DNA of 64,000 nucleotides from Nitrospirota bacterium (GTDB lineage Bacteria; Nitrospirota; Thermodesulfovibrionia; UBA6902; DSMQ01): NCBI GenBank assembly GCA_016208965.1, contig JACQXB010000006.1, positions 58,262-122,261 of the forward strand. The letters are read 5' to 3'. The notes beneath the pieces are model-generated. The model was not told the DNA's origin and did no database searches. It saw nothing but the letters and a program-made list of their open reading frames with translations. Of this stretch, positions 5,235 through 55,784 are shown piece after piece. Every line of letters begins with the position of its first letter. Position 1 is the first letter of the stretch. Position numbers and translations under genes: made by a program.

Positions 5235-6101
5235 TTATTCCTTCAGCCTATATATCTCAAACGGCAATTGGCAATAATCAATTCGGTATTCTAAAAGATA
5301 ATCGGTATCGAGATATTTGCTCGGGGCAAAGACAAGGCGCTTTTTGCCTTTGTACGGACCTAAGCTTTTTGCTACGTCAAGTGTGAGTGCGGTTGATTTT
5401 AGATAGTCAATATCAGGCTTGTAGAAAAGATATACTTCATATTCCTTTGATTCGCCAATGAAGTTTTTCTTTTCATTAACTTTTTTAGGATTAAATTCCT
5501 CTCCGGTTGCAGTATAAAAAATATAGCGCGCAAGCTCCATGTAATCACGAAGCTTTTTCCCTTCCAAAATGCTTTCCATCTCAATCGGCTCGCCAAGTTC
5601 AAAATAACTGAAAGTGCCGCCTAATCCTTCAAATCCCCCCTTGCCCCCCTTTTCTAAAGGGGGGATATTTTTAAGTCCCCCTTTGACAAAGGGGGATTGA
5701 GGGGGATTTTTCTTAATCCCCTTTATAACCCGCCTTACCCTTTCAGCAGTAATCTTATCCGCATAATCTTCGCATTCAACAAGAATAAACTTACGATTTC
5801 CGCTGTCTTCTTTATTTAAATCCAAAACTGCATGGGCAGTTGTGCCTGAACCGGCGAAGGAGTAGAGAACAATGGAGTCATTATCCGCAGATAACTTAAG
5901 TATTCTTTTTATCAGAGATGTAGGCTTTGGATTTTCAAATGGTAAATCAACTTCTGAAAAAATCTCTTTCAATCCTCTTCTTGCTTCACTATTACTACCA
6001 ACTTCATTAGCAAACCAAATAGTTAATGGTGTAATTCCTTGTTTAACCTCCAGATGATGATTCTGGACAAAACTTTTACCTTTAAAACTTAAAGTCGCCA
6101 T
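5235..6101 (-). pseudogene. C-terminal portion of a type III (Mod-like) DNA methyltransferase, 5' part missing
   Basis: NPKPTSLIKRIL...VLYSFAGSGTTAHAV gives motif X/I of a beta-class MTase. No DPPY or TRD part upstream. Two C6/G6 palindromic repeats are inserted in-frame. Confidence 0.55.
5631..5710. repeat. C6/G6 palindromic element, two tandem/overlapping copies, inside CDS
   Basis: aaatcccccc ttgcccccct tttctaaagg ggggatattt ... ctttgacaaagggggattgagggggatttt. Confidence 0.8.
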
Positions 6102-6220
6102 TTTAAATCAACCCTCCTTTTTCAAACACCTTTCGATGTTTGCTTGCAGGTATGGGAGTTATTTTGGGCATATTACGATACAGTTACCAATTCAATTGCA
6201 ACAAGCTTTTCATTAAACCC

Positions 6221-7039
6221 TTACCTCCCTCTTGCAAGCCTCTCAATTAGATAAGGCGGCAGTCCTGCCTCCCGCATCTTCTTTTGTATAGATACTATAT
6301 CATAAGGTACCCTCTTTACTTCTATGGAATTTTGGGTTAGCAGGGCGTAGGCTGCCTCTGAATTGCCGTCCCTTGGCTGGCCAACGCTGCCAACATTGAC
6401 TATATATCTGCAACCCTCTTTAATATCAGCGTAATCCTTATAAACAGAAATATCACCTTCAGGATTCATTTCTGCTATAAAGGGATAGTGACTATGCCCT
6501 ACAAAGCATATTCTTTCAGTAAAGAATTGAAAGTTTATATATGCATCCCATGTGTTCAGGATATAGTGCCATTGCTCAGGCTCTTTTGGTGTTGAATGGA
6601 CAAGATAGACATCCCCAAATCCCCCCTGCCCCCCTTTGCTAAAGGGGGGTAAGGGGGGATTTTCTTTATTGCCCTTTGTATCTCCTTGTGACACAAATGT
6701 TTCATCTGTAATTTTCAAGCTCTTGAAAATTGGAAGGCTCCTAAGAAACTCCTTATTTCTATCACTCAGAATCTCTGTTGTCCACTCTATTACCTCTTTG
6801 GCATAGGGATTAAAATACTCAATATCGGTTATGCCAATAACTGCATGGTCATGATTGCCAGCGAGGAATATTTGTGTTTCTTTTCTTAGGATTTTTATAC
6901 ATTCGTTTGGGTTAGGACCATACCCGACGATATCCCCTAAAAACCATACTGCATCAGGATTTTCTTTTTTTATTGTAATAAGGACAGACTGTAAGGCTTC
7001 AAGGTTGGCATGGACATCAGAGATAATGGCATAACGCAT
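6221..7039 (-). CDS. Calcineurin-like metallophosphoesterase (YfcE-like)
   Basis: DVHAN, GDIVGYGP and GNHD motifs. Carries an in-frame C6/G6 palindrome translated NPPLPPFSKGGQGGFG. Confidence 0.8.
   Translation of the reverse strand: MRYAIISDVHANLEALQSVLITIKKENPDAVWFLGDIVGYGPNPNECIKILRKETQIFLAGNHDHAVIGITDIEYFNPYAKEVIEWTTEILSDRNKEFLRSLPIFKSLKITDETFVSQGDTKGNKENPPLPPFSKGGQGGFGDVYLVHSTPKEPEQWHYILNTWDAYINFQFFTERICFVGHSHYPFIAEMNPEGDISVYKDYADIKEGCRYIVNVGSVGQPRDGNSEAAYALLTQNSIEVKRVPYDIVSIQKKMREAGLPPYLIERLARGR
6617..6663. repeat. C6/G6 palindromic element inside the phosphoesterase CDS
   Basis: aaatcccccctgcccccctttgctaaaggggggtaaggggggattt. Confidence 0.85.
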
Positions 7040-7078
7040 TCGCTAAATTAAAAAATTAAAATGCAAAATGTATCCCGA

Positions 7079-7504
7079 CTATTCGGGATGATTTTTGGTT
7101 TTTGGTTTTTGAATTTTATCAAGGATACCGTTTATAAATGTGTATGAATCTTCTGTTCCGTATTTCTTTGCTATCTCAATTGCCTCATTAATTGTGACTG
7201 ATGAAGGTATCGTGTCCTGATAAAGCAGTTCATAGGTAGCGGCTCTAAGGATATTTCTATCAATGACAGCCATCCTGTCTATACTCCAGCGCTCTGCTAC
7301 CTGTTTTATAACACTGTCTATTTTTTCTATATGCTCAACAGTCCCTTCAACAATGGTGCTTGCAAATTTTCTTACATCATCATCTTCTTTAATCCCATTC
7401 CAGAAATCTTTATATAAAGAGGCAGGAATTACTTTCATGGAGTTTGTAAGGTCAAGCTGAAACAGCATCTGAAGGGCATATTCTCTGGCTCTACGGCGCT
7501 TCAT
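7079..7504 (-). CDS. nusB: Transcription antitermination factor NusB
   Basis: MKRRRAREYALQMLFQLD... The longer ORF N-terminus is read-through of the 7-mer tandem repeat at 7503-7552, so the start is set at the internal Met. Confidence 0.85.
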   Translation of the reverse strand: MKRRRAREYALQMLFQLDLTNSMKVIPASLYKDFWNGIKEDDDVRKFASTIVEGTVEHIEKIDSVIKQVAERWSIDRMAVIDRNILRAATYELLYQDTIPSSVTINEAIEIAKKYGTEDSYTFINGILDKIQKPKTKNHPE

Positions 7505-7552
7505 AGGGCAGTGACGAGTGACGAGCAACAAGTGACAAGTAACAAGTAACAG
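7503..7552. repeat. Heptanucleotide tandem repeat (gtgacga/gtgacaa/gtaacaa)
   Basis: Seven consecutive 7-mers read directly. Confidence 0.8.
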
Positions 7553-7634
7553 CAAAATGCAAAATTCGGGATGCGCATCGCAGAATTAAAATCCGGGATC
7601 TGAAATCTGAAATCAGAAATTGAGAACTCGTTAC

Positions 7635-8096: not shown

Positions 8097-8151
8097 AATC
8101 CCTCCCTCTTTTTAAGCTGATAGCTGATAGCTCATGGCTCATAGCTCATGA

Positions 8152-9366: not shown

Positions 9367-9369
9367 AAT

Positions 9370-11235: not shown

Positions 11236-11315
11236 TTTCTGTTTAACTCCATGTTTTTTAGTGTCAGTGTCAGTTTTCAGTGTCAGTAACTGACACCAAC
11301 ACTATTCACTGACAC

Positions 11316-13106
11316 TTATTTTACCTTAAGCACTGTAAGAAAAGCCTCCTGAGGAATCTCAATCCTTCCTACCTGTTTCATCTTCTTCTTGCCTTCCTTT
11401 TGTTTTTCAAGGAGTTTTCTCTTTCTTGTTATATCACCACCATAACATTTGGCGATAACATCTTTCCGCAAAGGTCTTATAGTTTCCCTTGCTATTATTT
11501 TATTCCCAATAGCCGCCTGAATAACTACCTCAAAAAGCTGTCTCGGGATAACCTCTCGTAATTTTTCAGCGAGCTGTCTTCCCTTATGATATGCCTTTTC
11601 CCTGTGGACAATAAGGGAAAGGGCATCAACAGATTCTCCATTTAACAGTATATCAAGCCTGATGAGGTCAGATTCTTTATATCCTATAAATTCATAATCC
11701 ATTGAGGCATAACCACTTGAAAGCGATTTTAGTTTATCATAAAAATCCCATAAAATCTCGTTTAAAGGAATTTCATAAGTTAAAATAATCCTGTCTTTTC
11801 CCAAATAAGTGAATTCTTTCTGCACCCCTCTTTTCTCTTGGCATAACGCAAGAATCTGTCCAACATATTTTTCAGGCACAAATATAGTTGCCTTTACATG
11901 GGGTTCTTCAATCTTCTCACACTTGTCAGGAAGTTTTGAAGGGCTGTCAATAAATAATGCCTCTCCAACTGTCTTTGTAACCCTGTAATTTACAGTGGGT
12001 GCTGTATTCACAAGCGAAAGCTCAAATTCCCTCTCAAGTCTCTCCTTCACAATCTCCATGTGTAGCAGTCCGAGAAAACCACTCCTGAAGCCAAACCCTA
12101 ATGCCACGGATGTCTCAGGCTCAAAGGTAAAAGAGGAGTCATTAAGCCTCAGCTTTCCAAGCGCATCCTTCAGGTCTTCATAGCGGGCTGTCTCTGTTGG
12201 ATAAAGCCCGCAGAAGACCATGGGTTTTACCTCTTTATACCCTTGGCACGGTTCAGGGGTAGGATTTTCAGCATTGGTAACTGTATCACCTATCTTTGTA
12301 TCTGATACACTTTTTATCCCTGCAGTAATATAACCAACCTCTCCGGCACTAAGGCTCGGGACAGGCTTTCTATCAGGTGTGAATATGCCAACCTCACCAA
12401 CCTCATATGTCTTCCCTGCTGCTATAAGTGTAATCTTTATCCCCTGTTTCACCTCTCCGTCAAAGACCCTGACGAGAATAATTACCCCTTTATAGGTATC
12501 AAACCATGAATCAAAGATGAGCGCCTTTAAAGGTTTGTCTTTATCCCCCTTAGGTAAGGGCACCTTTTTTACCACTGCCTCAAGAACCTCCTTGATCCCT
12601 ATACCTTTTTTTGCAGAGGTATAGATCGCCTCGGAGCAGTCAATTCCCATTAAGTCTTCTATCTGAGCCTTTACCTTTTGTGGCTCCGCATTTGGCAGGT
12701 CAATTTTATTTATAACAGGGATTATCTCAAGGTTATGCGCGCTCGCAAGGTAGGCATTGGCAAGTGTCTGTGCCTCTACCCCTTGTGTTGCATCAACTAT
12801 AAGGAGTGCACCCTCGCAGGAGGCAAGACTGCGTGATACCTCATAAGAGAAGTCAACATGCCCTGGCGTATCAATCAGGTTTAGTATATAGTTTTTTCCA
12901 TCTAATGCAGTGTAAGTTAATCTTACTGCATGTGCCTTTATTGTTATACCCCTTTCCCTTTCAATGTCCATAGAGTCAAGCACCTGTTCTGTCATATCTC
13001 GCTTGGATACAGCGCCTGTTAGCTCAAGGATTCTGTCAGCGAGAGTAGACTTGCCGTGGTCTATATGGGCAATGATAGAAAAGTTCCTTATGTTGTTTTG
13101 AGCCAT
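11316..13106 (-). CDS. lepA: Translation elongation factor 4 (LepA)
   Basis: 596 aa. [11 protein letters not shown]-domain and LepA C-terminus. Confidence 0.95.
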
Positions 13107-13164
13107 AATTTTCAGCTCATGGCTGATAGCTGATAGCTGATAAGCTGATAGTAGTTACTATGAG

Positions 13165-14088: not shown

Positions 14089-14292
14089 GATTAATCCTCC
14101 TAATAAAGTGTCAGATTGCCTGAGACTTTGCCTTTACTTCAACACTTATATCAAAACATAAATCAGGGTTAAGAATACATCCAAGATAGGGATATGCCTA
14201 TACTAAAAAAGGTATTTAGCAACAAGGAGTTTCAAATAATATCATAAATCTTATACTGCTGTAAACCCCGCACCAAATTGGTGCGGGGTTTA

Positions 14293-14457
14293 CCTTGTCA
14301 GCCTGTTGAAAAACTCTAAAATAACCATAAGTGTCATTCCCGCATGCTTTTAGCGGGAATCCAGTTTTTGTAAATTCAATAAGTTCTGGATTCCTGCTTT
14401 CGCAGGAATGACAATCTGGAGAACAAATTAGGACTTTTTCAACAGCCTGTTGTATCT
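14293..14457. mobile_element. MITE-like element with TIRs cagcctgttgaaaaa and an internal GTCATTCC..GGAATGAC palindrome
   Basis: Left TIR is gtcagcctgttgaaaaactc at 14293. Right TIR is ctttttcaacagcctgttg at 14435. Core is gtcattcccgcatgcttttagcgggaatccag...ctggattcctgctttcgcaggaatgaca. Confidence 0.6.
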
Positions 14458-17625: not shown

Positions 17626-18480
17626 ATGCAAGAAATTTTCCAAAATAAAATTTTCAATGAAGATGTAATGAGTGTCTTAAAACGAATGCCAGATAACTAT
17701 GTAGATATGATTTATAGTGATCCCGATTATAATGTCGGTATAAAATATAATGATAAGTCATATACAAAAGATTTTAAAGAATATATTGACTGGTATATCG
17801 AATTAGCCAAAGAATCATTAAGAGTTTTGAAAGATGAAGGTAATTTATTTTTTATTAATTACCCCAAACAAAACGCATATTTACAGGTTAAATTTCTAGA
17901 AGATGTTTGTTATGAAGTTTCTGAATATGTATGGATATATAACACAAATGTCGGTCATTCCCCCAAAAAATTTACAAGGGCACATCGCAGTATTTTGCAT
18001 TGCAGAAAAATAGAAAATAATAAATGGTTTAAAAAAAATGTTGCCGAGCCTTATAAAAATCCAACAGACAAGCGAATATTAGGAAATATTGCAAATGGTT
18101 CAACTGGCAGAATGCCTTATTCATGGTTATATTATAATTTAGTTAAAAATGTCTCACGAGATAAAACCATTCATTCTTGTCAAATACCATTAGGTTTAGT
18201 AGAAAAGTTGATTTTAGCTTCAACGGAAGAAAATGATTTAGTTTTTATACATTTTGGTGGTTCTGGCAGTGAAATAATACTGACAAAGCATTTAAAGAGA
18301 AAATTTGTATCCGCTGAAATAGATAAAATATATCATGATATGATACTTGAACGATTAAAAAGAAATGGCGACATTCCACATAAATATAAATTACAGATAG
18401 AAAGAAAGCAATCCGATAGAATTATTAATAACCAGATGGTTTTTTTTGACGCAAAAGCACAGAAACAAGACAATCTATAA
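17626..18480 (+). CDS. DNA amino-methyltransferase, beta class
   Basis: SDPDYN (motif IV) near the N-terminus and FIHFGGSGSE (motif I) near the C-terminus. Confidence 0.85.
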   Translation: MQEIFQNKIFNEDVMSVLKRMPDNYVDMIYSDPDYNVGIKYNDKSYTKDFKEYIDWYIELAKESLRVLKDEGNLFFINYPKQNAYLQVKFLEDVCYEVSEYVWIYNTNVGHSPKKFTRAHRSILHCRKIENNKWFKKNVAEPYKNPTDKRILGNIANGSTGRMPYSWLYYNLVKNVSRDKTIHSCQIPLGLVEKLILASTEENDLVFIHFGGSGSEIILTKHLKRKFVSAEIDKIYHDMILERLKRNGDIPHKYKLQIERKQSDRIINNQMVFFDAKAQKQDNL

Positions 18481-18646
18481 AGAGAAGTAGACAAACAACG
18501 TCACTTAAAGCAATAAAATCGTCTAACAATTCGCTCCAGCGGACAAAAAAGCTGCGCTTTTTTGCCGCTGAGCTCAAGTGTTAGGCCCTTTCAGAGGGAT
18601 AGAGGATTAGAAAGAAATCAAGCGAAACACATGAAAAGGAGCCAAT

Positions 18647-19645
18647 ATGATATCGAATATTTGGCACCAGATTCCGTTCCCCTTATTGTTGATCTGCCTA
18701 TTTTTCTTTATAGCATCAGGGGTAAGGCGAATTGGTTTAAAAAACAAAGGGACTATGCTATCTACTTTCCTGCTTGCAATTCTTTTATTGTGGATGGTAT
18801 TTCCAATACTTCCTTTTTCTATATTATCAGCACTAATTATCGTAGGCGCATCGTTCGGTTTGGCATTTGCGCATCGTGAACCTGTTCTGAAAATCATTAC
18901 CTTTTTCTTAGTCGCAGACGTCTTATTGATTTCCATTAATCAGCTCATTGAAGTTTCAGGGATCGCACGACGGCTTCCTCCTCTAGAATTTCTCATCAGG
19001 CGTGAACTTGTGTACTTTTATTTCACTGAAATAGTTATAGGTTCACTTTTGGTTGCGGTTGTATTTCTTATAACATTTTTGGTGATAAACTATGTTCTTA
19101 AAGTTGGCGAAAATAAGATACATCACGGTAGCCCATGCTTTTTAGTGACCACTATATTGACTTATGTTATCCAGCAGTTTCTACACCTCGAACATCCAGA
19201 AATGGGTTACAGGGTATTCCCCAATGGGAACATAGTAAAATATACAAACCTCAACACGGGTGATCCAGTAAGTGTAAATGCGCTAGACTCAATATTTAAG
19301 TCGGATGGCAGCATTATAATACCGCAATATGTAAGCATACTATCATATGGCGGCATTTTTTGGACGGTTGTGTTGATACTTGTCGTAGGCCTGAGTATTG
19401 TTTTCGGTGTTGCATTATCGCACAAAGGCGTGTTATCGGAATGGTACCAACGCACTTCACGACTAATCGTATTTGGTGTATTCTATTTTTCCTTTTATCA
19501 CATAATATTGATGAGCTTTCTTTATTCTGATTATGATTTACTTAATGGCCTGATGATGATACTGCTTTCTGCGATTACTATACCTTTTGGTGCTTTAATT
19601 GGATACTCTCTTAATGAAATGGCTATTCACAAAGAAAACGCCTAA
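18647..19645 (+). CDS. Polytopic membrane protein, unknown function, inside the R-M island
   Basis: 332 aa with at least 8 hydrophobic segments. No recognised motif. Confidence 0.5.
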   Translation: MISNIWHQIPFPLLLICLFFFIASGVRRIGLKNKGTMLSTFLLAILLLWMVFPILPFSILSALIIVGASFGLAFAHREPVLKIITFFLVADVLLISINQLIEVSGIARRLPPLEFLIRRELVYFYFTEIVIGSLLVAVVFLITFLVINYVLKVGENKIHHGSPCFLVTTILTYVIQQFLHLEHPEMGYRVFPNGNIVKYTNLNTGDPVSVNALDSIFKSDGSIIIPQYVSILSYGGIFWTVVLILVVGLSIVFGVALSHKGVLSEWYQRTSRLIVFGVFYFSFYHIILMSFLYSDYDLLNGLMMILLSAITIPFGALIGYSLNEMAIHKENA

Positions 19646-19784
19646 CAAAGCAAATGCACTCGGACGGCAAAAAGCGCCGCTCGTTCCTCGCTCTGCCTTT
19701 TGCCGCCAGTGATTTGCAACGTTATGTAAATAAGAATATTCAAAAACAATATTCAAAAACACATCGTTTTCAGTATAATAGTGC

Positions 19785-20429
19785 ATGCCCAACTATTTAA
19801 TAGAAATCTTTGAAGATGAAAAATTAATAGAGCGAATTAAAAAGCGATTACCGCACCTATTTCAACTCGCAGAATTTGAAAGCTCAAGGGCAGGAAAAAT
19901 TGGAATGGAAATTGGCTCTGTTCGTGAGAGAATAATTGTTGCCTTACTCATCTATAAATTCGGTGAAGCTAATGTAGAGTCAGAAATTCCTATCACAGAA
20001 TCAGAAGTGGATGTAAAACTATTTGGTGAGCCTATATCTGTAAAAACAATAACAGGAAATAGCTTCGCTGGTGTTAAACTGATATGGACAGTAGATGCTG
20101 AAAAGGCAAGACAATTTAGTGAAACATATCAGCCCATGTGTGATATGCTATTCGTTCAAATAAACTGGGGGAAAGAAGGAGGATTTTTCTACATTCCTAT
20201 AAGAGTTCAGAAAAGGCTTTTTGATAAAATAGGAAGAAAGAGCTATATAAAGCTTCCCAAAGCAGGAACAAATCCCAGAGGTGTTGAGATTACAAAAGAG
20301 GCATTGATAGCTTTAGTTGAAGACAGCGAGACAAAAGTTATTAAAATAAATTGGCAACGCAGCAAAATAGAATTCAATCCTTACAAGAGATGGGTTGACC
20401 TTTGGAAAGAGGACAAAGATGAAGTCTAA
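19785..20429 (+). CDS. Putative type II restriction endonuclease
   Basis: 214 aa with ESEVDVKLFGEPISVKT, a possible (D/E)xK core. 3' end overlaps the MTase start. Confidence 0.4.
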   Translation: MPNYLIEIFEDEKLIERIKKRLPHLFQLAEFESSRAGKIGMEIGSVRERIIVALLIYKFGEANVESEIPITESEVDVKLFGEPISVKTITGNSFAGVKLIWTVDAEKARQFSETYQPMCDMLFVQINWGKEGGFFYIPIRVQKRLFDKIGRKSYIKLPKAGTNPRGVEITKEALIALVEDSETKVIKINWQRSKIEFNPYKRWVDLWKEDKDEV

Positions 20430-21369
20430 TAGAAATAGAAGAAATGGGACAAAGACAAGTTCTTTTGGTTCTCCAGGGCGAATTGGCCATGATTCAAGTT
20501 CTTTCTATGCGAGCAGATTATATGAAGGACTACCGAAGGAAAATAAAGTTAAGTATCTGGAGAACCCTGTACCAGCAGATTGTTTAGATAAAATCTTTTG
20601 CAAGACAAGTGAAAACATAGAGGAACTGCCTGACAACAGCATACATCTTATGGTTACATCACCGCCCTACAATGTAGGGAAGGTATATGATGAAAATTTA
20701 ACTATGGACGAATACAGAGCATTTTTAAAGCGTGTATGGGCAGAGACAAAAAGGGTACTGGTTCCTGGAGGTAGAGCTTGTATTAATATCGCAAATCTTG
20801 GTAGAAAACCTTATATCCCCCTTCACACCTTTATTATTAAAGATATGCTTGATTTAGAGTTCTTGATGAGGGGAGAAGTGATTTGGAATAAAGCTTCAAG
20901 CGGCAGTCCTTCAACCGCATGGGGTAGTTGGCTTTCAGCACAAAATCCAACACTCAGAGATATTCACGAATACATCTTAATCTTCTCAAAAGATAACTTT
21001 TCAAGAGGTAGCCAGCATCATAAAAAAAGCACAATCACCAGAGATGAATTTCTTGAGTTCACAAAAAGTGTATGGACATTTCCGGCAGAACCAGCCACAA
21101 AAGTTGGACACCCTGCTCCTTTCCCTGTAGAGCTACCGTACAGACTGATTCAACTTTATACATTCAAGGAAGACATTGTTTTAGATCCTTTTGCTGGAAG
21201 CGGTCAGGCAGCGATAGCGGCAATAAAAACAGGAAGACATTATGTTGGATACGATATAAATGAAGAATACGTAAATTTGGCAGAGAGACGAATTAAAGAA
21301 TTCTCCGAAGCCTTTAAATCCCCTAAATTGTTTAAACCAGAAAAACAGGTCTTAATAAGCAATAAATAG
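20419..21369 (+). CDS. DNA amino-methyltransferase, beta class
   Basis: VTSPPYNVG (motif IV) then DPFAGSGQAA (motif I). ATG at 20419; ORF track gives TTG at 20395. Confidence 0.85.
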   Translation: MKSNRNRRNGTKTSSFGSPGRIGHDSSSFYASRLYEGLPKENKVKYLENPVPADCLDKIFCKTSENIEELPDNSIHLMVTSPPYNVGKVYDENLTMDEYRAFLKRVWAETKRVLVPGGRACINIANLGRKPYIPLHTFIIKDMLDLEFLMRGEVIWNKASSGSPSTAWGSWLSAQNPTLRDIHEYILIFSKDNFSRGSQHHKKSTITRDEFLEFTKSVWTFPAEPATKVGHPAPFPVELPYRLIQLYTFKEDIVLDPFAGSGQAAIAAIKTGRHYVGYDINEEYVNLAERRIKEFSEAFKSPKLFKPEKQVLISNK

Positions 21370-27714: not shown

Positions 27715-27800
27715 CTGTCCTAATCGTCATTCCCCGACTCGATCGGGGAATCCAGAGTTTTATCCTTCCTGGATTCTCTGGTCAAGCCAGAGAATGACAG
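27715..27800. repeat. GTCATTCC...GGAATGAC palindromic element
   Basis: cgtcattccccgactcgatcggggaatccag...ctggattctctggtcaagccagagaatgacagc. Confidence 0.7.
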
Positions 27801-32430: not shown

Positions 32431-32540
32431 TCCCCCCTTTGTAAAAGGGGGGTGAGGGGGGATTTTATGGATAAATGCTTCTGCTTAGAGTTTTTTATTT
32501 ATAAAAATCTCCCCTCCCCCTCTTTGCTAAAGAGGGGAAC
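32431..32540. repeat. Two degenerate C6/G6 palindromic elements, intergenic
   Basis: cttccccccttt gtaaaa ggggggtgaggggggatttt and aaaatctcccctccccctctttgctaaagaggggaac. Confidence 0.7.
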
Positions 32541-39808: not shown

Positions 39809-39811
39809 AAC

Positions 39812-40591
39812 ATGTTATTTTTTATAGATGAAAGTTGGCAATCAACTCAGGATGGCAAATACAAAGTCGGAGTGTTATCGGCGATTCAAATAAAAAGTCA
39901 TGATTTTAATGAGTGCTCCAAGCAGATATATGAACTTAAAATTAAAAATTTAGGATACCGTGCTGGAGATTTAGAAATTAAGGGAAGAGAAATTTTAAGA
40001 AACTATCTTTTTGAACTTGAGTCAAAAGGCATAAAATCAAAAGAACTAAATCTCGTTAGAGATATTCTTACCTATATGCAGACTTTAGGTATAAAACTTT
40101 TTGCTTCTATTGTATTCTCAAAAAAGGAAATTGATTTGGCTTGTGCTAATGTAAATCAACTTGAAAGACCATTTTTCTTTTTATTTGAACGCATAGATTT
40201 ATTTATGAAGGAAAATTATCCAGGACTTATGGCTAAGTTAATCTTTGATGATAGAGGGATACAATTCAATAAAAAAATATCAAAAAGTGTGAGTAATTTC
40301 TTCCATAAAAGTAGCATTGGCCAGGAGTTTGATACTATTATTAAAGTTCCTTTCTTTGCAATCTCCACAGAGAATGTAGGAATACAAATGGCAGATATAG
40401 TTGCTCATATTTTGGGTAGCAGATTTACAGGAGATAAAAAACAAATAGAATTTTTCAAGAAAGTTAAAAGTCTTGAGTTTATAAGCAGAACTCTTGTTGA
40501 TATAAGAGGAAAAATGTTACAACTCCTTGGATTTAAAGTAGTAAAAGAGAAAGAGGCTGGCGATTTATTCAGTCCGGGAAGAACTGTATAA
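39812..40591 (+). CDS. DUF3800-family protein embedded in the R-M operon
   Basis: 259 aa starting MLFFIDESWQ, the DUF3800 N-terminal signature. 3 bp after the A subunit stop and 100 bp before the S subunit. Confidence 0.6.
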   Translation: MLFFIDESWQSTQDGKYKVGVLSAIQIKSHDFNECSKQIYELKIKNLGYRAGDLEIKGREILRNYLFELESKGIKSKELNLVRDILTYMQTLGIKLFASIVFSKKEIDLACANVNQLERPFFFLFERIDLFMKENYPGLMAKLIFDDRGIQFNKKISKSVSNFFHKSSIGQEFDTIIKVPFFAISTENVGIQMADIVAHILGSRFTGDKKQIEFFKKVKSLEFISRTLVDIRGKMLQLLGFKVVKEKEAGDLFSPGRTV

Positions 40592-40691
40592 AACTATAAG
40601 AAAGCTTGAAAGCTCCCTACCAGCCTCAAACTTATTATAGCTTATGTTAGGGTAAAAATCAATAAATTTTAGCGGGTGAAATTTTAAAGAA

Positions 40692-42038
40692 ATGGTCACT
40701 TATTCAATCATTAAGAAATCTCAAATTGAGGGCATATATCGGCTGGATGCTGAGTATTATCAGCCAGAATATTTATCTTTAATGAAATCTTTAAAAATAA
40801 TACCAAATGTTGAATTAAACTCCCTTGCTTTTGTGACTGACGGAATTCACTCCTCAATCGATTATGATAATAAAAGTAACATCAGGTGTTTATCTGCACA
40901 ATCTGTACAAGATAACTATTTTGATTTATCAGCAAATACTTTTATTTCAGAAGATCAACATAAAGTTAATTTAAGGACAAGTCTAAAAGTAGGAGATGCT
41001 ATACTTTCATCTGTAGGAACAATCGGTAATTGTGCCGTTATAACAGATAGTATTCTACCAGCAAATGCAGACCGCCATGTAGCAATAATAAGGTTATCTG
41101 CCAATAAACTATCACCGTATTTCTTATCGGTATTTTTAAATTCTAAATACGGAAGATTTCAAACCTTAAGAGAATCTACAGGGAATGTTCAACCTAATTT
41201 ATTTATCGATAAAATCAAAAAACTGATAATTCCAACGATAAAAAACCACAGAGAGATTAGCGAATTGGCTGAAAAATCTAACGATATGATACTTGCTGCT
41301 AATTTGCTTTACTCCCAAGCCGAAAATCTGTTTTTAGAAGAATTAGGATTGAAGAATTTTAAACCACAAGAGAACTTGTCCTATGTTGTTAATCTCTCTG
41401 ATGTAAAATCCGCTCGCCGTGCCGATGCCGAATATTTCCAGCCGAAGTATAAAAGGATGGTTGAGAAAATCAAAAAACACAATTTGAGTCTACTTGGCGA
41501 TCCGGTTACAATGAAGAAAGGATTCGAGCCGGGAAGCAACGAATATCAAGATAAAGGAAAACTATTTATTCGCGTGAGCAGCATTTCAAAACATGGAATA
41601 ATTGATAAAGACCAGAAATATTTAAGTGGAGAATTGTATCAAAAATTAAGAAAAGATTTTGAGCCAAAAATTGGTGAGATATTACTGACTAAAGACGCAA
41701 CGCCCGGCATTGCCTATGTATTGAAAGAGGCTATTGAAGGAGTTGTGGCAAGCGGCATTATGCGTTTAAAACTTAAAGAGAATATTGAAGCGGAGTATTT
41801 GACTCTCTGCATCAATTCTATTGTCGGTCAAATGCAGATTGAACGTGATGCAGGCGGTTCAATAATTGCGCATTGGAAGCCAGAACAAATTAAGAACTTA
41901 CAACTCCCTATATTCCCTAAACCAACTCAGCAAAAAATCGCTGACTTAGTCCGTCAGTCCCATGAGGCAAGAAAAAAGGCAAAAGAACTCTTGGAAGAAG
42001 CAAAAAGAAAAGTTGAGGAGGAAATTGAAAATAATTAA
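40692..42038 (+). CDS. R-M specificity subunit (HsdS-like, two TRDs)
   Basis: 448 aa with conserved HsdS repeats LPIPPL...KIADLV / QQKIADLVRQ. Confidence 0.8.
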   Translation: MVTYSIIKKSQIEGIYRLDAEYYQPEYLSLMKSLKIIPNVELNSLAFVTDGIHSSIDYDNKSNIRCLSAQSVQDNYFDLSANTFISEDQHKVNLRTSLKVGDAILSSVGTIGNCAVITDSILPANADRHVAIIRLSANKLSPYFLSVFLNSKYGRFQTLRESTGNVQPNLFIDKIKKLIIPTIKNHREISELAEKSNDMILAANLLYSQAENLFLEELGLKNFKPQENLSYVVNLSDVKSARRADAEYFQPKYKRMVEKIKKHNLSLLGDPVTMKKGFEPGSNEYQDKGKLFIRVSSISKHGIIDKDQKYLSGELYQKLRKDFEPKIGEILLTKDATPGIAYVLKEAIEGVVASGIMRLKLKENIEAEYLTLCINSIVGQMQIERDAGGSIIAHWKPEQIKNLQLPIFPKPTQQKIADLVRQSHEARKKAKELLEEAKRKVEEEIENN

Positions 42039-42044: not shown

Positions 42045-42612
42045 ACGACATCAAATACAGTTTTATAAAAATTGTCCTTGAATACCCAGTAGCTTTGCTA
42101 CTGGGATGAAAAGGACATCCTGACGAATAGTCAGGATAGTTTTTTGTTAAAATACGGGCATGAGCCCATTGAGGAGAAGCAAGCACTGTGTATATGACCT
42201 GAAGTACCATTTTGTATGGATACCAAAGTATCGGAAGGAAGTATTGAAGAGTAGGGTAGCAAGTAGGATGAGGGAGATATTTGGGGAGATAGCGGAGCAA
42301 TATGAGATTGAGATAGATACGATGGAAGTAATGGATGATCATGTGCATTTGTTTTTGTCTGTGCCACCGAAGTATTCTCCTGCAGTAGTAGTACAACGAA
42401 TAAAGAGTATATCTGCGAAGATAATATTCCGAGAATTTCCAGAGATAAAGAAGAGCCTTTGGGGTGGTGAGCTTTGGAATGACGGATACTTTGTACGTTC
42501 TGTTGGCGATAAAGTAACAGCCGAAGTAATCCGTAAATACATTAAATATCAGCATAATGAACAAATTGGTTTTGAGTTTTAATGCCCCGCAGTTCTACTG
42601 CGGGGTTCTTTA
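42045..42612 (+). mobile_element. IS200/IS605-family insertion sequence (tnpA only)
   Basis: TnpA at 42160..42582 has HuH motif HVHLFL and a Y1 transposase fold. Subterminal hairpins cccagtagctttgctactggg, cctgacgaatagtcagg and ccccgcagttctactgcgggg. Confidence 0.8.
42160..42582 (+). CDS. tnpA: IS200/IS605 transposase TnpA
   Basis: 140 aa reading MSPLRRSKHCVYDLKYHFVWIPKYR...HVHLFL. Confidence 0.9.
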   Translation: MSPLRRSKHCVYDLKYHFVWIPKYRKEVLKSRVASRMREIFGEIAEQYEIEIDTMEVMDDHVHLFLSVPPKYSPAVVVQRIKSISAKIIFREFPEIKKSLWGGELWNDGYFVRSVGDKVTAEVIRKYIKYQHNEQIGFEF

Positions 42613-42692
42613 CTTAATTGTTTAATTACATCAAGAGCGAAAATAAGAAGGGCAAAAAACTTTTTGGTGGAATAGTCGCAAACTCTGACCCA

Positions 42693-45046: not shown

Positions 45047-46565
45047 TGGCACCTGCCTTGAATTCCTTTAGCAAATAAGGGGAACAAAAACCCACAATTA
45101 CAGTATGTCTTGATGCCTTTACTGTTTTTTTAAGTATAGTTTTTAATTTCCTGCTTAATCCACTCCTTCCTTTCCATGCAGAGATTTTTGAAAAGATGGC
45201 GATGATTAAAAATCCCCCTTTGCCCCCCTTTGTCAAAGGGGGGATGGGGGGATTTTTAGATGAAATGGTTTTATTGTCAACATAATAGGTCTCTATGTTT
45301 TTGTATCTCGCTTTAAGTGTATTAATAAATGGCTTGCCTGATTTGTTGTTGTCGTCATCAATGATGAGGACAGCTATTTGGTCTGAAAATGCTTCCTTTT
45401 TGTCATTGCGAGCCCCGAAGTTTCGGGGCGTGGCAATCTTTTTGTTTTTAATACCCTTTTGAGATTGCTTCGTCACTTCGTTCCTCGCAATGACATTTTT
45501 TACGATGCTTATTGATTTTTTTGTCAGCTTATAAGCAAAATCCCAGTTTGCCTTTGTTCCGATATCTTGCATCCTGTATCGTGCATCTTGTATCACTAAT
45601 TCTTTTTTCCCTTTTATAATTTTTTCGTAAGACTCATCAACCCTCTTTTCTATCTCATTCCATCTTGAGGAAAAATAATCTATTATTCTTTCAGGTTCGC
45701 TTGGATGAAGGATTATGTCTGCGCCTGCATTTAAAGCCATTAAACATGCCTTCTCCTCAGGATATCTAATTGCCTGCATATTCATTGCATCTGTGACTAC
45801 AAGTCCTTTAAATTTCATTTCAGTTTTTAGTAATCCTTTAATGGTCTTCTCCGAGAGGCTTGATGGAAATCTTGAATCAATAGCAGGCACTTTGAGGTGA
45901 CCTACCATTACCATCTTGACTCCTGACTTTATTGCCTCTTTAAAGGGATGTAGTTCAACTTTTTCAAGCCTTTTCATATCTGCCTTTACTATTGGTAGCC
46001 TTATATGAGAGTCCACGCTCGTATCTCCATGCCCTGGAAAATGTTTTGCACAAGCAATAATCCTGTGTTTCTGAAAACCTTTTATAAATTCATTCCCAAA
46101 CCATGAGACCTTTTCAGGATTCTCACCAAATGCCCTTACAGAGATTATAGGATTTTGGGGGTTTGTGTTTATATCAAGTACAGGTGCAAATATTACATTT
46201 ATTCCACATGCCTTTGCCTCTTGAGCGATAATGTTTATGGAGTTCCTTAACAGATTAATATCATCTTTATTTTTTGGGTTAATCGCCTGTCCAATAGCCA
46301 TAGCTGGAGGGAACAATGTGCCGCCTTCTATCTGCTGTCCAAGTCCTCGTTCAAGGTCAGAGGTTATAAAAAGAGGGATTTCACTTAGTTTCTGCAATTT
46401 CTTAATTGCCTCGCTTACATCTTTTAGCTTCCCGCCAAAAACAATAAAACCACCAATGCCTTTCTTAACAAGCGATTGGTAATATTGAAACTTTTTATGG
46501 ACATCTTTCCCATCAAGCCTTGCAATTATAAGCTGTGCAATTTTTTTATTTTTATCCATGGGCAT
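44979..46565 (-). CDS. Glycoside hydrolase family 3, NagZ-like beta-N-acetylhexosaminidase with a C-terminal extension
   Basis: KHFPGHGDTSVDSH motif. The C-terminal ~150 aa contains two in-frame repeat elements at 45208-45256 and 45395-45492. Start Met chosen at MPMDK. Confidence 0.7.
   Translation of the reverse strand: MPMDKNKKIAQLIIARLDGKDVHKKFQYYQSLVKKGIGGFIVFGGKLKDVSEAIKKLQKLSEIPLFITSDLERGLGQQIEGGTLFPPAMAIGQAINPKNKDDINLLRNSINIIAQEAKACGINVIFAPVLDINTNPQNPIISVRAFGENPEKVSWFGNEFIKGFQKHRIIACAKHFPGHGDTSVDSHIRLPIVKADMKRLEKVELHPFKEAIKSGVKMVMVGHLKVPAIDSRFPSSLSEKTIKGLLKTEMKFKGLVVTDAMNMQAIRYPEEKACLMALNAGADIILHPSEPERIIDYFSSRWNEIEKRVDESYEKIIKGKKELVIQDARYRMQDIGTKANWDFAYKLTKKSISIVKNVIARNEVTKQSQKGIKNKKIATPRNFGARNDKKEAFSDQIAVLIIDDDNNKSGKPFINTLKARYKNIETYYVDNKTISSKNPPIPPLTKGGKGGFLIIAIFSKISAWKGRSGLSRKLKTILKKTVKASRHTVIVGFCSPYLLKEFKAGAIIEAYSDSKQVQEIVGEILSSS
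45208..45256. repeat. C6/G6 palindromic element inside the GH3 CDS
   Basis: aaaaatccccctttgcccccctttgtcaaaggggggatggggggatttt translates NPPIPPLTKGGKGGF. Confidence 0.85.
45395..45492. repeat. GTCATTGC...GCAATGAC palindromic element inside the GH3 CDS
   Basis: gtcattgcgagccccgaagtttcggggcgtggcaatc...gattgcttcgtcacttcgttcctcgcaatgaca. Confidence 0.7.
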
Positions 46566-51035: not shown

Positions 51036-51056
51036 AGGTATTTTCAGAGCAAATTT

Positions 51057-51401: not shown

Positions 51402-51543
51402 AACTTATTCCTTCAAACCCTAAATTCTAATATCTAAATTCTAAACAAATTCTAATGTTCAAATAACCAAATTCAAAACAGTTTTGAATATTTGAATTTA
51501 GAATTTTGATATTGTTTAGTATTTAGGATTTCGGATTTAGAGT

Positions 51544-52599
51544 TTAAGCCTTATACGCTTTTTCCACCTCTTTTAACGCTTCCCTCATTTTATCTGTAAC
51601 TTTCTTTGGCACTACTATTTTTATGGTTACATATTCATCGCCCCTTATGCCTATTTTTGTATTAGGGATTCCCTTGCCTTTAAGTTTGAATTTTTTCCCG
51701 CTGTCTGTTCCGGGAGGAAGGGTCATTGTAACCTGGCCATCAAGCGTTGGAACCTCAATCTTTCCTCCAAGTACTGCTTCGCCAATACTCACAGACATAT
51801 CAACATAGATATCATCTCCATCGCGCTTAAACACAGCGTGCGGTTTAACAGTCAGTTCTATGTAAAGATTTCCGAGATGCCCCTTTTTTATACCTGCACC
51901 TCCCATGCCTTTTAATTTTAGTCTGCTTCCCGTATGTGCGCCTGGGGGGATTTTTACTTTTATGGTTTCAGTAACAAGCACAGTTCCACTCCCTCTGCAC
52001 GACTTACATGCCTTTGTAATTATCTTTCCTGCGCCCTTACAGGAAGGACATGTCTGACTTACTCTGAAATATCCTTTGCCCTGCTGTATCACCCCTGCGC
52101 CTTTGCAATTAGAGCATGTCTGAGAGGTCTCAGCCCCCGTCCCTTTACACGCACTACATGAAATCTCTCGTGTTAATGTAATAGGTTTGCTTACACCCTT
52201 ATATGCCTCCTCAAGAGAAATTTCAATGGATGTTGCAAGGTCAGCACCACGCAGCGGTATCTCTTCGCCCCTGCGGCTGCCGAAAAGGTTTGCAAAAATA
52301 TCTTCAGCACCGCCAAAATCAAAACCAAAGTCAAAGGGTCTAAACCCTTCAAACCCTCTTGCTCCAGCCTCAAAAGGAGTCTTTCCAAACTGGTCATAAT
52401 CTGCCCGTTTCTTTGGGTCGCCAAGAACCTCATAAGCCTCGTTTATCTCTTTAAATTTCTGCTCTGATGACTTATCGCCTAGATTTAAATCAGGATGGTA
52501 TTTGCGCGCTAATTTCCTGAATGCCCTCTTTATTTCATCCTGAGAGGCATCTCTTTTTACACCGAGCATTTCGTAATAGTCTTTAGTTGCGGTCGTCAT
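51544..52599 (-). CDS. dnaJ: Chaperone DnaJ
   Basis: J-domain (HPD), G/F region and four CxxCxGxG zinc repeats. Confidence 0.9.
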
Positions 52600-52926: not shown

Positions 52927-53073
52927 AAAATCCCCCTCCATCCCCCTTTTTCAAAGGTATGAACCAGAGCGGTTCATACCAAAGGGGGAAATTTTCCCCC
53001 CTATTAAGAGGGGATAAAGGGGTGTATTCCCCTCTTTAGCAAAGAGGGGTGAGGGGAGATTTTATAAATAGAG
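52927..53073. repeat. Composite cluster of 2-3 C6/G6 palindromic elements with an inner hairpin
   Basis: aaaatccccctccatcccccttttt...aaagggggaaattttcccccc...ctttagcaaagaggggtgaggggagatttt. Confidence 0.7.
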
Positions 53074-53154
53074 TATTTTCGGGTCAATGGTTAATAAAAG
53101 GAATTGATTAGGAAAGGATGTAAAAAGATAAATATAGGAGTGAATTTTGGATAA

Positions 53155-54375
53155 TTAATTCAAAAGCCTTACACGCACCTTTGCGCCTTTTTTTATAAAT
53201 TCTTCATCTTCAGGTAAAATCATCAGGCTATTGGCAAGCATCATTGATTTTAATATTGCAGAACCCTGAGGACCTGTAGCCTTTGTTATATAACCACTGT
53301 TTTCCCATCGGGTCTGTGCCCTGAGGAAAAACCTCAGTCCTTTTTTCTTCTTTATATCCTCATCTAATATAGCCTCTACCTCTTTTATGCTATCATCCTT
53401 CTGTCCTAACATCTTAAGGATAGCAGGCATTACAAACATCTCAAAACTCACCATGCTTGAGACAGGATTTCCCGGCAATCCAAACACAGGCTTCCCATCC
53501 ATTATACCGAATAATACAGGTTTCCCTGGCCGCATTGCGATTTTCCAGAACTTTATCTCTGCCCCTAATCTCACTAAAACATCTTTAATTAAATCATAGT
53601 CCCCCATGGAGACCCCGCCGGATGTAACTATTGCATCATGCCCTCTGCACAGATTTATCTTCTTCTCTAAATCCCCTATATCATCTCTTGCAATGCCTAT
53701 GTTTGCCGGCTCCCCACCGCAACTCAGTATCTGGTTATATAATGTGTAGGTATTAGAGGTTCTGAGCTTCCCGTGTGTTAATTGTTCTTCTACATCTATT
53801 AGTTCATCGCCTGTTGCCAGGATAGCAACATGGGGTTTTCTTGTAACCTTTGCCCTTGAGATACCTAAGGCTGCAAGCATACCTATATGGGCCGGCTTCA
53901 GTAATGTTCCCTTTTGAATCACAAGCTCGCTGCTTTTTATATCTTCTCCTGCCTTTCTTATGTTATCACCGTATTCTACCTCTTTAAAAATCTTTACTTT
54001 TGACTTTTGACTTTTGACTTTTGACTTCTCAGTCTCTTCAACCATTATCACAGAATCAGCACCTTTAGGTATTGGCGCTCCTGTCATAATCTTTATTGCC
54101 TGACCGTGTTTTGTCTCCATAGAGGCAGCAATACCTGCTTTAATTTCTCCAATAACATCCAAAATTTTTGGCGTCTCATTTGAAGCGCCGACAGTATCAG
54201 ATGATTTAATCGCATACCCATCCATTCCAGAGTTATCAAAGGCAGGGATATCGCCACTGCTAAATGCATCTTCATACAGCACTCTTCCTAATGAATCTGA
54301 AAGAGAGATAGTTTCTGAATCTAATGGTGCGATAGAGTTAAGTATAATTGTTAATGCATCTTCAACTTTTATCAT
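53155..54375 (-). CDS. moeA: Molybdopterin molybdenumtransferase MoeA
   Basis: 406 aa reading GGVSMGDYD. Contains in-frame (ttttgac)x4 at 53996-54027, translated KSKVKSQKSKVK. Confidence 0.85.
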   Translation of the reverse strand: MIKVEDALTIILNSIAPLDSETISLSDSLGRVLYEDAFSSGDIPAFDNSGMDGYAIKSSDTVGASNETPKILDVIGEIKAGIAASMETKHGQAIKIMTGAPIPKGADSVIMVEETEKSKVKSQKSKVKIFKEVEYGDNIRKAGEDIKSSELVIQKGTLLKPAHIGMLAALGISRAKVTRKPHVAILATGDELIDVEEQLTHGKLRTSNTYTLYNQILSCGGEPANIGIARDDIGDLEKKINLCRGHDAIVTSGGVSMGDYDLIKDVLVRLGAEIKFWKIAMRPGKPVLFGIMDGKPVFGLPGNPVSSMVSFEMFVMPAILKMLGQKDDSIKEVEAILDEDIKKKKGLRFFLRAQTRWENSGYITKATGPQGSAILKSMMLANSLMILPEDEEFIKKGAKVRVRLLN

Positions 54376-54520
54376 TTGATTACAGGGTTGCTTTAGACAT
54401 GGAATTATTTATCCAGCACTCTGAGAATTGGTACTTGGATTTATTTAAGACCATGTTACAAAAGTATAGCCTATATTACTAAGAGCATATGGACATGTCA
54501 ATAAAATAACAGAAGCAAAT

Positions 54521-54575
54521 AAGCTAATAAGCTATAAGCTAAGAGCTAAAAGCTAATAGCTAATAGCTAAATAGA
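54521..54575. repeat. Heptanucleotide tandem repeat (a[at]aagct)x8
   Basis: taagcta ataagct ataagct aagagct aaaagct aatagct aatagct. Confidence 0.8.
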
Positions 54576-54629
54576 GAATTTCCTATCTGTTTTTATTATA
54601 ATTGGGAAGATTAGTTTAGATTAATAACT

Positions 54630-55784
54630 ATGAAGAGAAAAATTACAATAGGCACACGAAGTAGCAAGCTTGCCTTATGGCAGGCTGAATGGGTTAAATC
54701 TGAACTCAAAAAGCTTAACTCTGATTTAGAGATTGAACTTAAAAAGATTAAGACTACAGGTGATAAAATTCTTGATGTCCCTCTTGCAAAAATTGGCGGC
54801 AAAGGGCTTTTTGTAAAGGAGATAGAAGAAGCACTTTTAAGAAGAGAGGCTGACTTAGCAGTCCACAGCATGAAGGATGTGCCAACTGATTTACCTCAAG
54901 GGCTTCATATATCCGCTATATGTAAGAGGGAGAATCCGAGAGATGCCTTAATAGTAAGTCAAAAGTCAAATCCCCCCTTACCCCCCTTTGCTAAAGGGGG
55001 GCGTGGGGGGATTTTAAACTCGTCACTCGTTACTCGTCACTCGTTACTATACGAGCTTCCACATGGTGCAACAATTGGCACGAGCAGTCTTAGAAGAATA
55101 TGCCAGATATTAAGCATACAGCCTAATTTTAAAATTACACAGCTTCGCGGAAATCTTGATACAAGGATAAGAAAACTTGATGAAGGGAAGTTTGACGCCA
55201 TTATTGTTGCAGTTGCGGGTGTAAAAAGGCTGGGTTTATCTCATAGAATTACTGAAACTCTTGAACCTGATATATGTCTGCCCGCTATAGGTCAAGGGGC
55301 TGTTGGTATAGAATGCAGAACCGATGATAAATTTATAAATAGCATCCTTTCACCTTTAAATCACGTTGAAACATCTGTATGTGTGAAGGCAGAAAGGGCA
55401 TTCCTTAAGAGGTTAGAGGGCGGCTGTCAGGTGCCAATTGCAGCGTATGCGAGAATTGAGAAGATGCAAGATTCAGGATACAGGATTCAGGATACAGGAT
55501 TCAAGATACAGGATAATCATGCATCGTGCATCATGCATCATGCATCCGACATCGTCACTCGTCAATCATTACTATATATTGATATTGACGGTCTTATCGG
55601 CAGCGTCTCCGGAGACAGACTCATAAAAGGTCACATAGAGGGAAATCCTCAGGATGCAGAAAAACTTGGGGTCAACCTCGCGGAGGATTTACTCTCAAGA
55701 GGTGGAGAAAAAATACTTGCAGAGATTTATCCAGTTAGATCACTATCATCCGCTAACCATCTGAAACCCATTGATAATACATGA
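54630..55784 (+). CDS. hemC: Porphobilinogen deaminase with three in-frame repeat-derived insertions
   Basis: IGTRSSKLALWQA and the cofactor region are present. Insertions: a C6/G6 palindrome at 54968-55015, an (actcgtc/actcgtt)x4 run at 55015-55050, and 7-mer runs (caggata/caggatt)x6 plus (catgcat)x4 at 55462-55550. Confidence 0.85.
   Translation: MKRKITIGTRSSKLALWQAEWVKSELKKLNSDLEIELKKIKTTGDKILDVPLAKIGGKGLFVKEIEEALLRREADLAVHSMKDVPTDLPQGLHISAICKRENPRDALIVSQKSNPPLPPFAKGGRGGILNSSLVTRHSLLYELPHGATIGTSSLRRICQILSIQPNFKITQLRGNLDTRIRKLDEGKFDAIIVAVAGVKRLGLSHRITETLEPDICLPAIGQGAVGIECRTDDKFINSILSPLNHVETSVCVKAERAFLKRLEGGCQVPIAAYARIEKMQDSGYRIQDTGFKIQDNHASCIMHHASDIVTRQSLLYIDIDGLIGSVSGDRLIKGHIEGNPQDAEKLGVNLAEDLLSRGGEKILAEIYPVRSLSSANHLKPIDNT

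Follow-up and report, generated by a model that had tools for sequence, protein, structure and literature searches.

How does a palindrome of only 46-48 bp, built of C- and G-runs, come to lie both between genes and, in frame, inside them? The question is raised by a 64,000-nt stretch of a Nitrospirota bacterium (Thermodesulfovibrionia; UBA6902; DSMQ01; GenBank assembly GCA_016208965.1, contig JACQXB010000006.1, positions 58,262 to 122,261 of the forward strand), hereafter the window. A first-pass annotation, made from the sequence alone, had noticed a family of C6/G6 palindromes there at six places and had compared it with the Rickettsia palindromic elements (RPEs). Analysis of the window and of related loci in other genomes leads us to conclude that this C6/G6 element is probably a non-autonomous, hairpin-dependent mobile repeat, which is moved in trans via a single-stranded intermediate into A/T-rich sites in either orientation, is lost by hairpin-stimulated slippage, and survives in frame as proline/glycine linkers in surface loops.

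The consensus is A-AATC6-N(2-4)-C6TTT-NNN-AAAG6-N(2-4)-G6ATT-T, and copies or fragments of it were confirmed at all six places. It describes a nested hairpin in which an internal loop (2-4 nt on each side) separates the outer stem (AAATC6/G6ATTT) from the inner stem (C6TTT/AAAG6), the latter closed by a 3-nt loop. Folded as single-stranded DNA (ssDNA), the full copies reach -20.4 to -21.6 kcal/mol, against about -10 in shuffled sequences (z -4.7 to -5.6), which upholds the proposed palindromic hairpin; composite copies fold with one outer stem around two inner hairpins. The core pattern CCCCCYTTNNYWAAGGGGG, with up to two mismatches, gives 22 strand/register matches at 8 places in the window where shuffles predict 0.05, and 18 of the 22 runs of at least six C or G in this 39%-GC sequence fall within the six places. 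A covariance model trained on 40 copies from other genomes, and applied to the window without filters, returned three full copies (54967-55015, 6615-6663, and 45209-45257; 63-70 bits, E <= 1e-16) and four partial or composite ones (5630-5699, 32423-32466, 32514-32539, and 52938-53063). It yielded no further copy in the 64 kb, the next match (14261-14293) being an unrelated hairpin, and the initial list is therefore complete. The copies, the genes that hold them, and the heptamer repeats abutting the hemC copy are listed below; the copies are supported by the covariance model and folding, and the genes were identified by Pfam.

54968..55015: full element, AAATC6-TTA-C6TTTGCTAAAG6-CGT-G6ATTT, in hemC residues 114-128 (NPPLPPFAKGGRGGI); 69.6 bits
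6617..6663: full element with bulges TG/TAA, in metallophosphoesterase residues 127-141 (NPPLPPFSKGGQGGF); 64.6 bits
45208..45256: full element with a C5 outer arm and bulges TTTG/AT, in GH3 residues 448-462 (NPPIPPLTKGGKGGF)
5631..5710: composite copy in Mod remnant residues 132-157, made of outer left arm, inner hairpin 1, 12-nt spacer, inner hairpin 2, and outer right arm
32431..32465: partial copy, inner hairpin and right outer arm, intergenic
32506..32540: partial copy, compensated variant (AAAATCTCCCC-TC-CCCCTC TTTGCTAAA GAGGGG)
52927..53073: cluster of degenerate C5/G5 units, intergenic
54630..55784, plus strand: hemC, porphobilinogen deaminase, 384 aa, with repeat-filled loops at aa 110-137 and 277-319
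6221..7039, minus strand: calcineurin-like metallophosphoesterase, 272 aa
44979..46595, minus strand: GH3 (NagZ-like) hydrolase, 538 aa, with other in-frame repeats also present
5235..6101, minus strand: type III Mod methyltransferase, C-terminal remnant
54956..54970, plus strand: heptamer repeat AAGTCAA x2, peptide SQKS, abutting the left end of the hemC copy
55018..55048, plus strand: heptamer array ACTCGTY x4.4, peptide NSSLVTRHSLL, abutting the right end of the hemC copy

Pairing is possible between the left arm of the copy at 32506..32540 and the right arm of that at 32431. One of the degenerate C5/G5 copies holds in its loop an unrelated 25-nt hairpin (GGTATGAACCAGAGCGGTTCATACC, with arms GGTATGAACC..GGTTCATACC; 52957-52981), and nested inserts also occur within the hemC copies of L002, L127 and L135 (ARLPSVGQ), and of P0079 (L numbers denote loci from other genomes). 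A solitary GGGGGGATTTTT at 51944-51955, within the dnaJ open reading frame (ORF), matches one outer arm and may be a remnant or a chance match. No Rfam family matches the element at gathering thresholds, and the element is too small to hold any ORF of its own.

Copies had been placed inside four ORFs. Pfam supports the identity given to all four genes, and in three of them the element is read in frame within a recognizable protein. The window HemC, which is 100% identical to an annotated protein from a 167-kb contig of a public Nitrospirae metagenome-assembled genome (MAG), aligns to Escherichia coli HemC (PDB 1ah5) over residues 5-109, 138-276, and 320-367. At site 1, 28 residues including NPPLPPFAKGGRGGI stand in place of 3 in the E. 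coli enzyme, and the second repeat-filled segment has 43 residues in place of 7. The AlphaFold model of the protein has a confident core, with the insert regions modeled as coil (pLDDT <50 at residues 119-135 and 282-313). The phosphoesterase matches PDB 3rqz on either side of a 38-residue segment that replaces 5, and in both E. coli HemC and 3rqz the insertion points are short loops. The GH3 insert is internal, since the 75 residues past it are well conserved in two orthologues (66% identity in L054 and 57% in L009). The Mod gene is a different matter: the ORF is N-terminally truncated, its homology to solved Mod proteins ends just before the element, and no homology could be demonstrated downstream of the element, so that this copy can only be described as lying inside an ORF. 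The single peptide, PP(L/I)PPFxKGGxGG(F/I), that had been assigned to all four genes holds for hemC and the phosphoesterase (NPPLPPF(A/S)KGG(R/Q)GG(I/F)), whereas GH3 reads NPPIPPLTKGGKGGF and the composite in Mod reads NPPQSPFVKGGLKNIPPLEKGGKGGF. Orthology of the phosphoesterase with genes in L041 and L064 is tentative, given weak tblastn matches, and was not used.

Other repeats share these proteins. The second hypervariable loop of HemC (55461-55580, residues 278-317) contains two heptamer arrays read as KMQDSGYRIQDTGFKIQDNHASCIMHHAS, and its homologues carry quite different repeat cassettes at this place, the C6/G6 element among them. In the GH3 gene, another palindromic element of 99 bp is read in frame at 45396-45494 (residues 368-400), with inverted ends GTCATTGCGAG...CTCGCAATGAC and the peptide VIARNEVTKQSQ...IATPRNFGARNDKK; a shorter version is found at the same place in L054.

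An exact scan of GTDB species-representative genomes with the pattern AATC6-N(2-4)-C6TTTNNNAAAG6-N(2-4)-G6ATT found at least 117 stretches with the element in about eight phyla. Most of the listed stretches are from Nitrospirota/Thermodesulfovibrionia. The remaining hosts include Nitrospinota, Methylomirabilota, several Desulfobacterota families, Dehalococcoidia, an anammox planctomycete, one Asgard MAG, Betaproteobacteria, and, among the Gammaproteobacteria, Methylococcales, Chromatiales, and a Beggiatoaceae MAG. Five viral contigs also bear it; a blastn search with a 47-mer gave no plasmid match, possibly owing to the low-complexity filter. The local GC content of these stretches runs from 0.30 to 0.69, which alone shows that the hosts are very different genomes, with binning errors possible for single contigs. 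This distribution also bears on whether the copies are artifacts, either of assembly or sequencing (chimeric joins at G/C homopolymers) or in the form of pseudogenes. MAGs are the source of the data, and errors are common in homopolymer runs; however, the element recurs in >100 independent assemblies, some of them with contigs of 405-823 kb, which excludes the assembly chimeras that had been named as a refuting condition. It occupies equivalent sites in assemblies from many studies, on large contigs of 304 to 823 kb, and it sits in intact frames with homology on either side and with a frame distribution of 28:26:0 (see below). We regard an artifactual origin as extremely improbable.

In 130 copies, the core measures 43-47 nt and is most often 44 nt (70 copies, with 45 nt in 45), so that it is usually not a multiple of three. 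Conservation stops one base beyond AAT..ATT (A, or T in low-GC genomes), and the flanks past position -1 have background composition. The two bulges are complementary in only 8 of the 130, and recurrent bulge/loop subfamilies (AT/CGA, AT/TGA, ACG/TAA, and others) are common to several genomes. Inner stems anchored on C-TTTnnnAAA-G are all C:G in 153 cases, carry one Watson-Crick-compensated change in 23 (a count that may be inflated by amplification of a few compensated master copies), and carry an uncompensated change in about 7. The compensated types include CCCCTC/GAGGGG and CCTCCC/GGGAGG, with window examples at 32517 and 53029, and G:T wobble pairs are almost absent. The preserved pairing, together with the lack of strand bias reported below, points to a DNA-level hairpin, readable on either strand, as the likely functional form. 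A sister subfamily has C7/G7 arms, TAC7...G7TA ends, and the peptide TPPKPPLAKGGSGGV (L002:16562-16611, L022:2913-2962, L036:1392-1440, L001:19084-19132, and L030:1115-1165), and some of its variants have T:A-compensated arms (L034:1885 and L022:1863).

Copies in the relatives do not avoid coding sequence, unlike the repeats known as repetitive extragenic palindromes (REPs). In loci below 50% GC, 54 of 72 copies (75%) are intragenic, meaning that the surrounding ORF has 150 aa or more and continues for 30 aa or more to either side of the copy, compared with 71% of random 45-nt windows from the same loci. Two of the three frames had been described as free of stops, and the third indeed carries a stop in 201 of 266 strand-copies. 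The tabulation of frame and orientation suggested at the outset gave 28 intragenic copies in frame a (CCC CCC TTT, PPFxKGG), 26 in frame b (PPLxKGG), and none in the stop-prone frame c, as the first-pass annotation had predicted. The test is partly circular: a copy counts as intragenic only if its ORF is unbroken, and a stop would break it. Asymmetric copies are oriented 19 versus 19 relative to the coding strand, which argues against a strand-specific RNA role. The original statement that the element inserts in frame describes the surviving copies, rather than a demonstrated property of the insertion step.

At first sight, the hemC copies of four species resembled an ancient, orthologous insert constrained at the nucleotide level. 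A metagenome scan with hemC returned mostly distant phyla among the matches listed, with about 10 useful loci. The products of the window, L001, L002, and L003 are 64-81% identical, and four-fold sites elsewhere in the gene have reached saturation (0.27-0.42 identity); despite this, the element copies without a nested insert (window, L001, and L003) are 0.91-0.97 identical, and their four-fold Pro/Gly sites are all CCC or GGG (6/6 and 7/7), codons that account for just 14-26% of those used for Pro and Gly by these genomes. Such identity, arms that are invariant across phyla and GC contents, and compensated stem changes would also fit a host-beneficial structural signal (a REP-like protein site in DNA or RNA, or a determinant of mRNA stability or pausing) that is kept by purifying selection and not by selfish mobility. 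Turnover tells a different story. The hemC genes of L207 and L131 are 97.3% identical over 987 nt apart from one clean 54-nt indel of the element, and those of L208 and L209, with flanks that are ~97% identical, have entirely different cassettes in the site-2 loop. The L208 site-2 element is identical at 45/45 positions, bulges and loop included, to the site-1 copy of the window, which belongs to another species. Among 120 hemC homologues, the site-1 motif is intact in 14, degenerate in 26, and absent from 76, while site 2 bears the element in about 19 others; which of the two sites is occupied depends on the lineage. In keeping with independent insertions, three GH3 orthologues have the element at three different sites, the N-terminal copy of L054 being a 51-nt insert into GATAAAAAY|AAAAAAATT, and purL holds two copies in L002 with none at those places in L001. 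Orthologues that lack the insert, which the first-pass annotation had proposed to compare, exist in L004, in L131, and in L054 at the GH3 site of the window.

Across 59 low-GC loci (489 kb), the covariance model locates about 100 sites. Approximately 40 of these lie beyond the sites that brought the loci in, and they grade continuously from 65 to 20 bits, from near-perfect to badly decayed; most of the copies that the search pattern did not pick are decayed. Taken together, these observations show the birth and death of copies that mark a mobile repeat. Deep conservation as a sign of function was dropped as the main reading, since alleles that are 97% identical differ by loss or replacement of the element and since the identical variant sits at another site. 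Because that variant sits at a different site in another species, nucleotide identity among the hemC copies is explained by recency, and identity between copies generally is best explained by recency combined with hot, permissive loops. Nor do the copies show positional regularity or an orientation bias relative to transcription. A role as an intrinsic terminator or SPRITE-like repeat (a GC hairpin with a free U-tract after it, at the 3′ end of a gene) was rejected: a consensus scan shows no enrichment (10 against 9.8 expected), only one of the three full copies is flagged as resembling a terminator, copies lie mostly inside genes, and the T-run is paired to the A-run. Taken with the different sites used in different orthologues, these results make a host signal quite unlikely.

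A second alternative is spread by recombination, in which template switching or ectopic gene conversion, primed by period-7 arrays or by microhomology, would move cassettes of heptamer plus hairpin. Period-7 arrays occur within 40 nt of 8 of 128 copies, compared with 34 of 3652 random positions (odds ratio 7.1, p = 6e-5), and the same test finds no enrichment of other tandem periods beside these copies. The hemC copies at both sites are nearly always preceded by heptamer peptides of the SQKS/SEKS type, and the exchange between L208 and L209 involves a whole cassette in near-identical alleles. The indel between L207 (AAAAG[TGAAA]GGTGT-element-[TGAAA]AAAGG) and L131 (AAAAG[TGAAA]AAAGG) is a classic deletion between short direct repeats, here of 5 bp, around a hairpin, and no fixed target-site duplication (TSD) is seen. 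Against this, >90% of copies are without an adjacent array, their flanks past position -1 are at background composition, and recombination alone fails to explain entry into unrelated phyla or into heptamer-free sites such as the N terminus of GH3. We therefore consider it an unlikely explanation.

The mobile-repeat reading remains the one that we favor, and its steps can be outlined as follows. An enzyme supplied in trans, perhaps a hairpin-recognizing one of HUH/Y1 type or similar, would make the copies, and probably insert them, via a single-stranded hairpin; we infer both the mobilizing enzyme and the ssDNA intermediate. Landing would take place at A/T-rich sites, with either orientation allowed and no target duplication of fixed length, and removal would proceed by deletion between short flanking direct repeats. 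C- and G-runs encode Pro or Gly in every frame on both strands, and two of the three frames are stop free. Insertions that fall in frame into surface loops would therefore add only a flexible PPxPP..KGGxGG peptide and escape purifying selection, which would explain why genes hold copies as often as other sequence does.

Several results weigh against this reading, in addition to the invariant arms and the high identity of the hemC copies. The L207/L131 indel, the single clean one, is by parsimony most simply a loss rather than a gain, as more distant relatives are filled. There is no consistent TSD: the longest direct repeat in the flanks averages 3.52 nt, versus 3.27 +/- 0.07 in mismatched flanks, and no fixed register is enriched for duplication except in one amplified composite of a deltaproteobacterial MAG. 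In deltaproteobacterial MAGs (L014, L021, L048, L061, L063, L073, L074, L101, and L112), a larger dispersed repeat surrounds the element (...CCTCTGA|element|TCTGGAAGG..., with TCTG at either end), which suggests a single insertion into another repeat that was then amplified. The inserts in the two empty/filled comparisons measure 54 and 51 nt, that is, a 44-nt core plus 5-7 nonconserved bases on one side, plus possibly a short repeat. Either the moving unit is not simply the conserved core or selection retains only frame-preserving length variants. Translation of the inserts is something that we infer from intact reading frames alone.

The search for a partner is a further point on this side. 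Pfam searches of approximately 45 window ORFs and tblastn with approximate IS200 and RAYT queries identified no mobilizing gene for the element in the 64 kb, and no gene for a REP-associated tyrosine transposase (RAYT). Two candidates were rejected.

42073-42620: IS200-type element of the window, with tnpA at 42160-42582 (Y1_Tnp E = 1.8e-45)
L090 3073-3567: RAYT-like ORF with a weak Y1_Tnp match, in a region (3042-3596) with inverted GTAGCCACAGGCTTTAGCCTG repeats on either side

The former is the sole Y1 transposase in the window, and its own left- and right-end hairpins are unrelated to the C6/G6 element. The latter adjoins a birA gene bearing two C6/G6 copies and has the classical REP-RAYT arrangement, but the inverted GTAG-type REPs that flank it belong to another family.

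A bolder version of the mobile-repeat reading would make the element a previously undescribed, ultrasmall hairpin replicator that spreads horizontally, with 2 x (C6:G6) arms kept unchanged across at least eight phyla and a composition evolved to encode Pro/Gly linkers in any open frame on either strand, so that it colonizes coding as freely as noncoding DNA. Its mover would be neither a known insertion sequence (IS) nor a RAYT, and might be tied to the source of the period-7 arrays in Nitrospirota, cyanobacteria, and Beggiatoaceae. We put this forward tentatively, as a possibility on the doubtful side. Full-text literature searches with DNA strings, peptides, and Nitrospirota repeats found no description of the element, an absence of evidence only, as their coverage is incomplete. 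What is new here is the multi-phylum distribution, the lack of coding avoidance, the turnover, and the association with heptamers.

Comparison with known systems places the element near several of them and inside none by description. RPEs are ∼100-150 bp long, encode a conserved peptide of 30-50 aa, and have been reported in species of Rickettsia (Ogata et al. 2000, 2002, summarized in PMC10969869). Like RPEs, the C6/G6 element is palindromic, lies in frame in unrelated housekeeping genes at fold-compatible positions, and encodes no transposase, and the mobilization mechanism is not known for either. Its 43- to 47-nt core and ∼15-aa peptide fall short of the RPE lengths; the spread over about eight phyla, the C6/G6 runs, and the 75% intragenic share (71% in random windows) also set it apart, by description only. 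The parallel with RPEs drawn in the first-pass annotation is thus apt in the sense that the two work alike, not in the sense of membership.

REPs and REPINs resemble the element in being short, GC-rich, imperfect palindromes with an internal mismatch and hundreds of copies per genome, and share with it hairpin-dependent conservation (compensated stems, 23 versus ∼7), the lack of a TSD, clustering, and nesting. REPs carry a GTAG-type 5′ tetranucleotide. The C6/G6 element has no GTAG, and only position -1 (A/T) is conserved outside AAT..ATT. REPs flank their RAYT gene and are overwhelmingly extragenic, with 14 of 1,067 16-mers overlapping genes in SBW25 (PMC3116915), whereas three-quarters of the copies described here are intragenic. 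The window has no RAYT gene, and the RAYT-like gene of L090 is flanked by a different REP.

The small dispersed repeats (SDRs) of cyanobacteria, reportedly described by Elhai et al. in 2008, are said to be 21-27 nt long, to occur only in Nostocaceae, and to have heptameric short tandemly repeated repetitive sequences (STRRs) as companions. The TAACTGA heptamer repeats of Beggiatoaceae are horizontally patchy (PMC4679880). Together, these two systems appear closest in spirit to the C6/G6 element: they involve very small hairpin repeats, precise insertion without an obvious enzyme, nesting, co-occurrence with period-7 tandem repeats, and a patchy spread over several phyla that suggests horizontal transfer. 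The heptamer units differ, and in-frame residence in genes is not their defining trait, the comparison being by description only. Classical MITEs (transposable elements of miniature size with inverted repeats), such as Correia, ERIC, and Nezha, are usually >100 bp long, with a TSD of fixed length and a recognizable parent IS (PMC10969869, PMC3184786). The element is likewise non-autonomous, has terminal inverted repeats and a high copy number, and occasionally forms in-frame fusions in genes, but it lacks a fixed TSD, and no parent IS with matching ends is present in the 64-kb window.

Protein-coding palindromes have until now been in essence a curiosity of Rickettsia. These results extend them to environmental phyla that are abundant and to an element one-third the size, whose mode of movement can be tested in many genomes and in metagenome populations. 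Hundreds of natural loop insertions of 15-18 residues in essential enzymes (HemC, TopA, PurL, BirA, and GH3) amount to a map of permissive sites. On the practical side, shared PPxPP..KGGxGG peptides can give unrelated proteins a spurious similarity in metagenomic clustering and inflate protein lengths, and C6/G6 hairpins are likely to cause trouble in sequencing and assembly. The association with heptamer arrays bears on the old, unsolved origin of STRR-type repeats.

The window itself is rich in period-7 arrays (7510-7551, 8115-8149, 13114-13151, 29613-29641, 53996-54027, 54521-54571, 55018-55048, 55470-55546, and others), with the units AGTGACA, AGCTCAT, AGCTGAT, AAGTCAG, ACTTTTG, AAGCTAA, ACTCGTY, GATACAG, and ATCATGC. 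Several lie in frame within genes (a FAD_binding_2 ORF, moeA, hemC, and the N terminus of nusB), and they resemble the STRR repeats of cyanobacteria. Inverted pairs of heptamer or hexamer arrays form long imperfect intergenic palindromes at 51415-51545, 11260-11316, and 63618-63685. Another palindromic family, at 27726-27798 and 63133-63170, has GTCATTCCCCGA..TCGGGGAATCCAG paired with CTGGATTCTCTGG..CCAGAGAATGAC. The gene content is a mixture of housekeeping, restriction-modification, and toxin-antitoxin genes. Restriction-modification is unusually dense (656-1945, 5235-6101, 17626-21369, and 37814-42038) and comprises a Mod-like ORF, the Mod remnant, two N6/N4 methyltransferases, a ThaI endonuclease, and type I hsdM/hsdS.

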